In this document: positions 39,110 to 42,064 of the stretch, piece by piece | How positions within the stretch are numbered: position 1 is the stretch's first letter | Layout of the letters: each line of letters starts with the position of its first letter | Source of the DNA: Acidobacteriota bacterium | GTDB taxonomy: Bacteria; Acidobacteriota; Vicinamibacteria; Vicinamibacterales; UBA8438 | Direction of reading: 5' to 3' | Assembly: GCA_015659035.1 (NCBI GenBank) | Contig: DQNS01000028.1 | Span: forward strand, 8,711 to 72,710 | DNA: 64,000 nt | Program-made: the position numbers and the translations under genes | Notes under the pieces: model-generated | What the model was told of the DNA's origin: nothing | The model's database searches: none | The model's input: only the letters and a program-made list of their open reading frames with translations

Positions 39110-40753
39110 ATGAGCATTGCGAAACTTGCCATCCTGGTTGCTCTCGGAACGGCCGTTGCGTGTGGCGACCGCACGCCGCCGGTTCTTGGTGAGGTCACGC
39201 TCGCGCAGCCGAGCGAGCACACCCCGCTCGCCGCGTTGCTCACCTTCTCGACGGACGAGCCGGGTCGGGTCTCGCTCGAGATCGCTGATGGGGACAGGAC
39301 GTGGAGCGTGACGCCCGTCGACGATTATCACACCGACCATGAGATTCCGGTGCTTGGCCTGAGACCGGATCGTTCGCACGACGTGACCGTGGTCGTGTCG
39401 GACGAGGCGGGCAACGAGTCGTCGGCGCCACCGGTCACGATACGCACCGACCCGCTGCCCGAGAACTTTCCGCCGCTCGACGTCAGGGTCAGCAAGCCCG
39501 CGGCGATGGAGCCCGGGGTGACCCTGTTCGGGATGTTTCGCTGGCCCGATGGTGGGCGCCCCGACCAGACCTTCGGTCTGCTGATCGCGGTCGACGAGGC
39601 GGGCGACGTGGTCTGGTATCACCGGACCGACGAGGCGGCGTTGCTTGCGATCCGGCTCCAGAACGGCAATCTCCTCTACAACACGTCACCCGGGGGTGCG
39701 AGAGGAGCGCTTGTCGAGATCGACCTGCTGGGCAACGTGAAGCACACGTGGCGGTCCAGAGCAGTCTCGGCGGAGGGTCTGGAAGACGCCATCCTGGTCG
39801 ACGTCGACTCGATCCACCATGACGTGCTGGAGTTGCCGTCCGGCAACTTCGCGGTGTTCAGCTCCGAGATCCGCACGTTCGAGAACTACCCCACCAGCGA
39901 CGAAGACCCGGCCGCGCCTCGCGGAACCCAGGAGGTCGTCGGCGACATCGTTGTCGAGTTCGCGCGCGATGGCACCCTCGTCAACCAGTGGTACCTGCTC
40001 GATCTGGTGGATCCCTACCGGCTCGGATACGGCTCGTTGGACACGGGGTTCTGGCGCATCACCTACCAGGCGCTGATGGAAGACGAGCCCGACGTTGTCG
40101 ATTGGGCGCACGCGAACGCGCTGTTCTACGATCGTGTCGAGGATGCGTATCTCGTCGCCCTCCGGCATCAGGATGCGATCGTCAAGCTCGATCGGGCGAC
40201 GGGTCAGGTGGATTGGATCCTCGGTCCACACAGCGGCTGGAACGCACCGTGGGGCGAGCTGTTGCTGCAACCGCGCGGCGACATGGCGTGGGCGTATCAC
40301 AGTCACGGGCTGGAGGCGACGCCGCAGGGGACCTTGCTGATGTACGACAACGGCAACGACCGGGCCAGCGCGTTCGAGGCGCGGCTGCCGGGCTCGGACG
40401 CCTTCAGTCGAGCCGTCGAATTCGAGGTCGACGCTGAGGCGAGGGAAGTACGGCAGGTCTGGTCGTATCAGGGCTCGGAGGGCGAGCCGTTCTATTCGTC
40501 TTTCCTGAGTGACGCCGACTGGCTCCCAGTGACGGGGAACGTGCTCATCACCGATGGCGCGCGCGTCACTGAACTCGAGGGTGACCAAGGGGACAATGAC
40601 GACTTGCCTGACCACCAGTGGGCGCGCATTCTCGAGGTGACGCACACCGCACCCGCCGAAACGGTGTTCGAGCTGGTGATCGACGACGACCCGCCGTCGG
40701 GATGGCGGGTATATCGTGCGGGACGATTGCCGAGTCTGTATCATGAGCAATAG
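39110..40753 (+). CDS. arylsulfotransferase (ASST) family protein, lipoprotein
   Basis: Lipobox LGTAVAC. The protein is beta-propeller-like, with VDSIHHDV, WAHANAL and YHSHG motifs as in ASST family members. Confidence 0.7.
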   Translation: MSIAKLAILVALGTAVACGDRTPPVLGEVTLAQPSEHTPLAALLTFSTDEPGRVSLEIADGDRTWSVTPVDDYHTDHEIPVLGLRPDRSHDVTVVVSDEAGNESSAPPVTIRTDPLPENFPPLDVRVSKPAAMEPGVTLFGMFRWPDGGRPDQTFGLLIAVDEAGDVVWYHRTDEAALLAIRLQNGNLLYNTSPGGARGALVEIDLLGNVKHTWRSRAVSAEGLEDAILVDVDSIHHDVLELPSGNFAVFSSEIRTFENYPTSDEDPAAPRGTQEVVGDIVVEFARDGTLVNQWYLLDLVDPYRLGYGSLDTGFWRITYQALMEDEPDVVDWAHANALFYDRVEDAYLVALRHQDAIVKLDRATGQVDWILGPHSGWNAPWGELLLQPRGDMAWAYHSHGLEATPQGTLLMYDNGNDRASAFEARLPGSDAFSRAVEFEVDAEAREVRQVWSYQGSEGEPFYSSFLSDADWLPVTGNVLITDGARVTELEGDQGDNDDLPDHQWARILEVTHTAPAETVFELVIDDDPPSGWRVYRAGRLPSLYHEQ

Positions 40754-40786
40754 ACTGGCGCGACCGCCGTATAGGGGAAAAGAGCG

Positions 40787-42064
40787 ATGACGATGAGTGC
40801 GATAGCGAGAACCGGTGCCGTCGCGGTGTGCCTCGGGCTGTTCGCGGGGGGTGCCTCCGCCCAAGACGTGACGTATACGGAGGACGTTGCGCCCATCTTG
40901 ATGCAGCACTGCGCCACCTGTCATCGGCCGGGCGAGGTCGCCCCGATGTCGCTGCTGACCTACGAGGACACCCGCCCGTGGGCACGATCGATCGCACAGG
41001 AGGTGGGTCAGAAGCGGATGCCTCCCTGGCATGCAGCAGCGGGCCTGCGGGAATACACCAATGACCGCAGTCTCGACGCCGCCCAGATCGACGTCATTCA
41101 GCGGTGGGTCGCGGCCGGTGCGCCACGGGGCGACGACGCCCTGCTGCCGCCGGTTCCCACGTTCAACGACGGCTGGCAGCTTGGAGAGCCCGACCTCGTG
41201 CTCGCCTGGGAGGCTCCGTATCAGATCGAGGCCGACGGCGACGACGAGTATCGGTGTTTTGTGCTCGACCCCAAGTTCGAGGAGGACCAGTGGGTCGACG
41301 TCGTCGAGGTGCTCCCCGGCAATCGAACCACGGACCACCACATCGTGATCTATATCGACCAGGCTGGGGCGACCGCCACCAAACTGGATGAGGCCGAGCC
41401 GGGAGAGGGTTATACCTGTTTCGGCGGGCCCGGGCCCGGCTTCTTACCCTACATGGTGCCCGGGTGGGGGCCTGGATACGTTCCATCGGAGACGCCGGCC
41501 GGATCGGGGTATCTCCTGGAAGCCGGGGCCAAGATTATCGTGCAGGTGCACTATCACAAGACCGGCAGCCCTGAAGAAGATCTGACGCGGGTAGGACTGC
41601 GATTCGCCCGGAGACCCACACAGCGGGTGCTCTACAACGGCTATGTGCTGGGCCTCAGTCTGCAGATTCCGCCCGGAGACGCGAACTACGTTGTCACAGG
41701 ACGCACTCCGGTCCGCGAGGACATCACCGTCCACTCGATTGTGGCGCACATGCACTACCTCGGCAAAGCCATGGATATCTGGGCGACCTTGCCCGACGGC
41801 ACACGCGTCGACCTGGTCACGGTGCCCCGATTCGACTTCTACTGGCAGACCGATTACCTGCTGGCCGAGCCTCAGCGGCTGCCCGAAGGTTCGGTGATGC
41901 ACATGCAGGCGACCTTCGACAATTCACCCGAGAGCCCGTACCAGCACTCGGATCCCCCGCGGCTCGTCACCTTCGGCGAGCAGACGACCGACGAAATGGC
42001 CGTGGCCGTGTTCTTCCACACCCGTGACGCACAGAACATCAGTGTCGGCTCCACGTCGCCGTAG
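40787..42064 (+). CDS. c-type cytochrome domain fused to a PHM/DBH-like copper monooxygenase domain (paralog 2)
   Basis: Signal peptide, then [22 protein letters not shown]..MPPWH. The pattern DHHIVIY ... VHYH ... AHMHYLGK ... TTDEM follows. The gene starts 33 nt downstream of the ASST gene. Confidence 0.75.
   Translation: [425 protein letters not shown]

Follow-up and report, generated by a model that had tools for sequence, protein, structure and literature searches.

Copper monooxygenases of the PHM/DBH type hydroxylate sp3 C–H bonds (the C-alpha of glycine or a benzylic C-beta) and not aromatic rings; PHM (PDB 1PHM/1OPM/1SDW) and DBH (PDB 4ZEL) are type II, ascorbate-dependent enzymes built on a two-jelly-roll core. 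AssT of Escherichia coli CFT073 (PDB 3ELQ/3ETS/3ETT) is a PAPS-independent aryl-sulfate sulfotransferase with a ping-pong mechanism through sulfo-His436. Here we analyse a 64,000-nt stretch of contig DQNS01000028.1 from an Acidobacteriota bacterium, referred to throughout as the window, in which a gene for an ASST-family lipoprotein is followed by one for a cytochrome c–PHM/DBH-like fusion (paralog 2; paralog 1 lies elsewhere in the window). The reading that we prefer, and hold with rather more confidence than doubt, is that these are two cell-envelope enzyme genes that are probably co-transcribed but do not form a conserved functional module; their adjacency would be inherited and the ASST gene in decay. 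The features on which the comparison rests are as follows.

39110..40753, + strand: ASST-family (PAPS-independent aryl-sulfate sulfotransferase-like) lipoprotein, 547 aa (Pfam, PDB 3ELQ, lipobox)
40787..42064, + strand: exported cytochrome c–PHM/DBH-like fusion, paralog 2, 425 aa (AlphaFold, Foldseek, family profile)
paralog 2, residues ~1–25: Sec signal peptide, junction ASA/QD
paralog 2, residues ~26–125: haem-c domain, C42, C45, H46, M78
paralog 2, residues ~130–415: two-jelly-roll copper core, CuH H184/H185/H255 and CuM H321/H323/M404
29337..30782, - strand (open reading frame listed to 30911): paralog 1, cytochrome c–PHM-like, probable start MGAV at 30782

The two enzymes and their closest described relatives

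Both open reading frames of the pair were found where the preliminary description had placed them, on the + strand and 33 nt apart. Its ASST assignment of the first also holds: PF05935 (Arylsulfotrans) matched at 217 bits against a cut-off of 24.2 (E 5.4e-64; profile positions 26–367 of 374), an N-terminal Ig-like domain was detected (PF17425, E 1.9e-10) and E. coli AssT (3ELQ) was matched at E 8e-19 with the single sequence and at E 1.9e-37 with a 42-member family profile. NCBIfam returned no meaningful match for either the ASST or the PHM-like protein. The window protein shares with AssT both domains (PF17425 and PF05935) and the same Ig-like beta-sandwich and beta-propeller, although overall identity between the two is only 25%. 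The active site of AssT is described as His252, His356, Asn358, Arg374 and Thr501 together with the sulfated His436 (PMC13426309). The CFT073 assT gene (L167:28858-30654; then dsbL and dsbI) was aligned with the window ASST, and in an eight-sequence alignment window residues H237, H334, N336, R352 and H399, aligning with AssT H252, H356, N358, R374 and H436, were invariant; His399, the counterpart of the residue changed in mutant entry 4P04, was also invariant in 42 homologues. AssT Thr501 differs in aligning with Leu464 (Ser465 is adjacent), the other four sulfuryl-binding residues being kept (4/5).

Both proteins are exported to the periplasm; AssT, however, is soluble whereas the window ASST is predicted to be lipoprotein-anchored. 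Its N-terminus, MSIAKLAILVALGTAVAC/GD (…LGTAVAC18/GD), fits the PROSITE-type lipobox pattern, and at least 90% of 42 homologues have the same Cys18. The Cys418–Cys424 disulfide loop of the E. coli enzyme is missing, and no dsbL/dsbI adjoins the gene in the window. The first gene product is best described as a lipoprotein-anchored, PAPS-independent aryl-sulfotransferase homologue with the activity expected from homology, and it is an ordinary new member of the ASST family. On the strength of its homology with AssT, its six-bladed propeller would take a sulfuryl group from a phenolic sulfate donor and pass it to the hydroxyl of an acceptor in a ping-pong reaction via transient sulfo-His399. In CFT073 (L167:28858-32860) the gene immediately after assT-dsbL-dsbI, on the other strand, is ygiD, which bears the annotation 4,5-DOPA extradiol dioxygenase; that this catechol-handling gene adjoins assT may be coincidence.

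The description of the second gene product as cytochrome c–PHM-like likewise stands, being carried by Foldseek matches, a family profile and invariant ligands, and the haem block and copper-ligand motifs, TTDEM included, are present as had been noted. Taken alone the sequence gave sub-threshold Pfam scores with Cytochrome_CBB3 (20.6 bits) and Cu2_monoox_C (PF03712; 16.4 bits against a 23-bit cut-off), no match to PF01082 in the Pfam scan and none to the PDB as a single sequence; it is a divergent relative of the PF01082/PF03712 family and not a curated member. Among 67 members of its own family, matches at E <= 1e-3 were found to Cu2_monoox_C in 52/67, to Cu2_monooxygen (PF01082) in 17/67 and to Cytochrome_CBB3 in 29/67, and the family profile matched PHM at E 2e-11. 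An AlphaFold model of paralog 2 made with 67 homologues (pLDDT 89.3, pTM 0.86) was compared with the PDB by Foldseek, and the top 31 matches were all to PHM or DBH (probability 1.00, best E 2.7e-14, ~300 aligned columns), with target-normalised TM-scores of 0.57–0.71 for PHM chains and 0.37–0.40 for the two longer DBH chains. Weaker matches were to viral capsids, because these share the double-jelly-roll fold with PHM (discussed in PMC8812541).

The two-jelly-roll core and all six copper ligands (HH plus H at CuH; HxH plus M at CuM) are common to paralog 2, PHM and DBH, at an identity of ~16%. In the profile alignment 'vvHHvvly' corresponds to PHM His107/His108, 'lqvHYh' to His172 and 'apHmHllGk' to His242/His244, and M404 (GEQTTDEM) is taken as the equivalent of PHM Met314 in the PHM 'SSDEMC' motif. 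C42, C45, H46, M78, H184, H185, H255, H321, H323 and M404 were invariant in 67 sequences, paralog 1 included. By comparison with the described enzymes, paralog 2 is bacterial and periplasmic, is expected to have no ascorbate source, and begins with a CxxCH haem-c domain, whereas DBH is equipped with a DOMON domain and PHM consists of the core alone. A further difference lies in PHM residues R240, N316 and Y318, which bind the carboxylate of peptidyl-glycine in the PHM–substrate structure and align with Val319, Val406 and Val408; since all three are replaced by Val, peptidyl-glycine is not the substrate, and paralog 2 is not a PHM orthologue.

The haem domain was classified by its CxxCH motif, an invariant Met and the family-level Pfam matches; modelled in isolation it forms three helices (pLDDT 86.7). 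Met78 (MPPW) is the better candidate for the sixth haem ligand than M54 of the 'APMSLL' block, because the former is invariant and the latter is replaced by Phe in the alignment consensus. Paralog 2 would be exported to the periplasm by its Sec signal peptide and should bind one haem c, at Cys42/Cys45/His46 with Met78 as likely sixth ligand, and two separate coppers, CuH at His184/His185/His255 and CuM at His321/His323/Met404. The fused cytochrome would take single electrons from a periplasmic donor and hand them to CuH, and CuM would then activate O2 and hydroxylate an aliphatic or benzylic C–H bond. The presence of the fused haem domain suggests an electron source other than ascorbate, with the c-type cytochrome as entry point in its place, and we infer an electron path and chemistry that most likely amount to the PHM/DBH reaction wired through haem and made independent of ascorbate. 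The haem domain of cellobiose dehydrogenase (CDH) reduces LPMOs, and DOMON/cytochrome b561 proteins deliver electrons likewise. The likeness is that a haem domain feeds single electrons to an extracytoplasmic copper oxygenase; these systems differ from paralog 2 in their folds, in their haem (type b, not c) and in a copper site that is a mononuclear histidine brace where paralog 2 has two separated coppers, and the analogy is functional only. The DOMON domain of DBH offers a parallel of the same conceptual kind.

The near-identical haem block reported for paralog 1 is present there as in paralog 2, and the copper-ligand pattern is shared by both, although what had been given as 'T-Y-E-x-T' is actually TYAET in paralog 1. 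The two proteins are 33% identical over 429 columns (E 8e-60), far beyond chance, and paralog 1 has an insertion of ~100 aa after the HYH motif. Its open reading frame is listed at 524 aa; a start at MGAVTTRVAV… (30782) gives it a normal signal peptide. No third cytochrome c–PHM paralog was found in the window. The earlier suggestion of a lineage expansion is not supported by these data: at 40–47% identity, paralog 2 has nearer homologues in other phyla than paralog 1 (33%), paralog 1 has orthologues of its own (L144, 49%; L163, 54%), and several genomes are multi-copy (Tundrisphaera L077/L084, Blastocatellia L037/L056). As judged from these identities, the pair represents an old paralogy in a multi-copy family and not a recent local duplication.

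The family itself is large, with 3,406 clusters at 50% identity for E <= 1e-30 and 10,747 for E <= 1e-10; it spans Planctomycetota, Acidobacteriota, Armatimonadota, Gemmatimonadota and cyanobacteria, in redoxin, EF-hand, TPR, FGE-sulfatase and tandem-duplicated architectures. PHM has been described as the eukaryote-wide member of a Pfam clan that it shares with the bacteria-wide PNGase F (PMC8812541). No characterised bacterial PHM-like or cytochrome-fused copper monooxygenase was found in the literature searched, although absence there is no proof. The PHM-like gene of the window is a member of this large, uncharacterised bacterial variant of the PHM/DBH copper monooxygenases.

Gene neighbourhoods and the fate of the ASST gene

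When one genome was scanned for each GTDB species, at least 596 cytochrome c–PHM relatives were obtained, from which the best 80 loci were kept (37–76% identity to paralog 2; Planctomycetota, Acidobacteriota, Armatimonadota, cyanobacteria and others); the comparisons read loci and not whole genomes. An ASST homologue within 6 kb of the cytochrome c–PHM gene was found at 0/80 of these best loci. In the reciprocal manner, none of five distinct ASST orthologue proteins (72, 72, 60, 59 and 58% identity; seven loci) had a PHM-like neighbour, their genes lying instead beside those for PQQ-like propellers, an aldo-keto reductase, a sulfatase and kinases. The expectation that the pairing would be conserved in related genomes fails on both counts.

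The family does have a recurrent partner, but it is a redoxin and not ASST. An AhpC/TSA-redoxin domain is fused or directly upstream in 32/78 genome loci, redoxins make up 15/53 same-strand upstream neighbours and there are also many N-terminal fusions. The redoxin–cytochrome c–PHM-like fusions of Planctomycetota, Acidobacteriota and Armatimonadota, annotated as 'redoxin domain-containing protein', 'peroxiredoxin/mono/diheme cytochrome c family protein' or 'ascorbate-dependent monooxygenase', have the same cytochrome c and PHM-like core at 37–47% identity and the same invariant haem and copper residues; they differ from the window gene's clade, for which no redoxin lies nearby (0/37 loci), in carrying or adjoining the redoxin domain.

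This association raises the alternative that the PHM-like protein, instead of hydroxylating a substrate, has a redox or antioxidant role in the periplasm, for instance as an oxidase or as an enzyme that handles peroxide together with thiol redoxins. The frequency of redoxins, a DsbD-type transmembrane reductant transporter that is one of the family's upstream neighbours and the absence of the PHM substrate-binding residues would all fit such a role. We regard it as unlikely, however, given that all six two-copper ligands, the CuM Met among them, are invariant in 67 diverse members, a pattern characteristic of the O2-activating PHM/DBH enzymes, and that the clade of the window gene itself lacks the nearby redoxin.

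Two further patterns were looked for and set aside. Downstream neighbours were heterogeneous, with a PDZ/aspartyl protease at 4/43 and tandem paralogs at 3/43, and gave no conserved partner. Sulfatases, as part of a possible sulfur-ester theme, appeared in 2/53 upstream positions, one fusion and one convergent arrangement, which is too few given their abundance in Planctomycetota. The fusion is the 964-aa protein P0308, in which redoxin, cytochrome c–PHM-like and FGE-sulfatase (formylglycine-generating-enzyme-like) parts are joined; the convergent sulfatase faces a 72% ASST orthologue, that of L164 (L164:5678-7960).

Closer to the window the picture is one of inheritance followed by loss. The nearest named relatives of the PHM-like protein are the Gemmatimonadota protein P0016 (76%), from a metagenome-assembled genome (MAG), and that of the Longimicrobiales MAG chromosome L015 (76%, OZ252253.1); judged by these relatives, the window most likely derives from a Longimicrobiales-like member of Gemmatimonadota. 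All orthologues of the PHM-like gene at 76–90% identity with readable upstream DNA have ASST-derived sequence directly upstream, in the following states.

Intact: window species; L098 (89%; ~200-nt spacer, without TerC)
Frameshifted near codon 99: L012 (78%)
Last ~20–25 codons only: L157 (90%, DinB-like gene beyond), L099 (87%), L102 (80%)
Scattered fragments with an in-frame stop: L104/L117 (78–79%)
Codons ~496–517 joined to the PHM-like ribosome-binding site: L100/L005-7 (83%), L103 (79%), L106 (77%), L008/9, L107, L015 (76%)

Since every close orthologue has ASST relics upstream, the adjacency is ancestral to a narrow Longimicrobiales-like clade. Within it ASST is intact or near-intact in only three lineages and a relic in at least 12 loci. 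The frameshift in L012 is possibly an assembly error, its ASST still looking selected (codon-position identity 89/89/69), and was not counted as a certain loss. At least three separate losses of ASST occurred, and the PHM-like gene was kept each time; the latter is intact and under purifying selection in the ASST-relic loci, its codon-position identity in the clade being 83–88, 89–93 and 70–75%. Repeated loss of ASST beside an intact PHM-like gene argues against obligatory functional coupling, and the PHM-like enzyme, on this evidence, would not depend on an adjacent ASST.

The whole neighbourhood is rearrangement-prone. Of the M14 peptidase gene, which in the window runs convergently towards the PHM-like gene, relatives retain relics of 50–85 aa (L096-L098 region); Y1 transposase and group II intron maturase genes stand in its place at L012:8713-9969; a DUF4003 gene is inserted in L012 and L104; and TerC is missing from L098.

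Transcription of the gene pair

Promoter- and terminator-like sites were sought in positions 38000-43000 of the window, the GC content of which is 62–71% (2-kb windows). The features of the presumed transcription unit and of its surroundings are:

33630..35138: radical-SAM/B12-binding gene, upstream of the ASST gene
35274..37985: DUF5118/DUF5117/DUF4953 met-zincin, upstream of the ASST gene
38122..38877: TerC membrane protein, upstream of the ASST gene
39069..39097, + strand: candidate promoter of sigma-70 type, TTGAAA-17-TATCGT, in the 232 nt between TerC and the ASST gene (consensus match only)
40600..40667, + strand: retained block in the ASST 3' region (codons ~497–519), the relic directly upstream of the PHM-like gene in ASST-less relatives (alignment, tblastn)
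40754..40786, + strand: 33-nt intergenic spacer with RBS-like GGGGAAAAGAG; terminator-like site not found
42057..42102, strand not applicable: GC-rich hairpin across the 30 nt that separate the convergent stop codons of the PHM-like and M14 genes
42095..44911, - strand: M14 carboxypeptidase-like peptidase gene, downstream of and convergent with the PHM-like gene

The promoter candidate was the sole promoter-like site returned by the scan. Relative L098 has identical hexamers at 3127-3155, and nucleotide homology between the window and L098 starts at 39067, although L098 has no TerC gene. The spacer between the two genes reads …TAG actggcgcgaccgccgtataGGGGAAAAGAGcg ATG and contains a purine run resembling a ribosome-binding site (RBS-like). 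Neither sequence scanning nor folding revealed a terminator-like or promoter-like site in or near the 33-nt gap, which is less structured than its shuffles (-7.6 kcal/mol, where shuffles average -13.4; z +2.2). We also considered that the gap or the ASST leader might hold a structured RNA, a riboswitch or a terminator, and rejected this: Rfam gave no matches and the folds were weaker than those of shuffles. Because the genes lie on the same strand with a 33-nt gap that is unstructured, holds an RBS-like run and lacks a terminator-like site, and because a promoter-like site stands upstream, it is plausible that they are co-transcribed from 39069-39097. The two-gene operon of the preliminary description is accordingly upheld as a plausible transcription unit, by its gap, strand and lack of a terminator, but not as a conserved functional module. 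The unit would possibly end at the 42057..42102 hairpin (-23.8 kcal/mol), which has a 9-bp core, CCGUAGCG/CGCUACGG, but a z-score of only -1.25 and no U-tract.

The relics described above invite a different account, in which the PHM-like gene is transcribed alone from a promoter in the 3' end of ASST (TTGCCT-17-CATTCT, within 40600-40667) and the adjacency is purely historical. The block is kept directly upstream of the PHM-like gene in at least seven loci that lack the rest of ASST, and at 75–88% its identity to the window slightly exceeds the 70–75% third-position identity of the neighbouring gene; these figures come from local alignments, however, which bias them upward. The hexamers fall short of what the promoter scan accepts, the distance from block to start codon varies among relatives (~125–190 nt versus ~25–45 nt) and, where ASST is intact, third-position identity in the block is 16/23 against 300/393 and 274/393 elsewhere, so that there is no excess of synonymous-site conservation. 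The candidate was rejected on these grounds and we consider a separate promoter for the PHM-like gene doubtful.

Contigs carrying a second gene whose protein is 99.8–100% identical to that of the window (tblastn; L001-L004, L095) have the same synteny. Just 5' of the PHM-like start codon a common motif, ACGGCCGTATTyATGACACnGnCCACTTA, is present in L098:4800-5000, L012:7270-7327 and L104/L117; it is partly deleted in the window (…CCGCCGTATAGGGGAAAAGAG), and the spacer of L098 has an additional GC-rich insert of ~150 nt.

The surroundings of paralog 1 were also inspected. Divergently from it runs the gene of a secreted PKD-like protein (30901..31686, + strand; PF22352, E 5e-5), beyond which, ~900 nt from paralog 1, lies a candidate deiodinase-like selenoprotein gene (31692..33248, - strand) with an in-frame TGA at 33002..33000. 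Read-through of the TGA joins a signal peptide to a thioredoxin-fold domain with LGCLT-U-PPF (deiodinase-type CxTUPPF), followed by a DsbD_N-like domain and then EF-hands; in Pfam, the product of read-through matches T4_deiodinase best (E 3.6e-6; 26.9 bits, the cut-off being 27). Some 20 nt past the UGA, a 7-bp hairpin that has GGGU as its loop looks bSECIS-like, although its fold z-score is ~0. A family of deiodinase-like selenoproteins has already been predicted in bacteria (PMC1088965). In L008, close to an orthologue of paralog 2 (76%), a UGSC-family gene (L008:11499-11777; the family is named after a selenoprotein motif) adjoins a 551-aa AhpC-TSA/redoxin gene (11807-13284), a pair which is a hint of selenocysteine use in the clade and of redoxins in the vicinity of its PHM-like genes.

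The proposed pathway and the significance of the family

It had been proposed that the copper enzyme hydroxylates an aromatic substrate which ASST then sulfates or desulfates, selection for this periplasmic pathway holding the genes together. The same strand, the 33-nt gap and the lack of a detected terminator are what such a pathway would lead one to expect, as is an adjacency ancestral to the clade with both genes under purifying selection in the window species and L098 (ASST codon-position identity between the two is 92/93/76%). A shared substrate is also chemically conceivable, as DBH-type enzymes act on phenolic amines. Some aryl-sulfotransferases also sulfate aliphatic alcohols (review PMC13426309), which we counted in favour of a shared substrate. 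The two genes do not, however, co-occur at the 80 genome loci or with the five ASST orthologue proteins, the family's recurrent partner is the redoxin and not ASST, and ASST was lost independently at least three times while its neighbour was retained. The simplest logic, in which a phenol is made and then sulfated, falls because PHM/DBH chemistry targets sp3 C–H bonds; by established knowledge of the family it makes no phenols. With no conserved pairing, a decaying ASST and a chemistry that makes no phenols, the hydroxylate-then-sulfate pathway is not supported, and we think it quite improbable.

Several points nevertheless weigh against our preferred reading of an inherited and decaying adjacency. 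The adjacency is ancestral and both genes are under purifying selection where intact, which leaves room for some functional link there; genomes that lack an adjacent ASST, having been read at the locus only, might encode another copy elsewhere; and co-transcription of the two genes, though plausible, is read from sequence alone. On the side of the PHM-like protein, the Pfam scores of paralog 2 itself are below the gathering cut-offs, the isolated haem-domain model had no significant Foldseek match, and both the M404–Met314 alignment and the comparison of substrate residues draw partly on background knowledge of the PHM sequence.

A bolder version would combine the two lines of evidence: cytochrome c–PHM-like proteins would be a very large bacterial class of haem-wired, ascorbate-independent periplasmic two-copper monooxygenases, and in the Longimicrobiales-like clade the ancestral co-transcription with ASST would stem from a genuine two-step modification that later became dispensable, in which a phenolic or benzylic substrate from the envelope or environment is first hydroxylated at a benzylic position and then O-sulfated. 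We rate this combined proposal as a long shot.

If true, a hydroxylation–sulfation pathway would be a new periplasmic route for aromatic compounds. On the reading preferred here, that of two probably co-transcribed genes whose adjacency was inherited, the pairing is a lineage-specific and decaying inheritance, and is therefore unfit for annotating either family. The repeated loss of ASST beside a conserved neighbour is a clean, small example of gene decay, by which synteny in marine Gemmatimonadota can be dated and polarised. The more durable point is that the PHM/DBH core has a large bacterial family fused to haem c and often to a redoxin; it is this family, and not its pairing with ASST, that merits experimental attention, as its electron donor and substrate would show how PHM/DBH chemistry runs without ascorbate.

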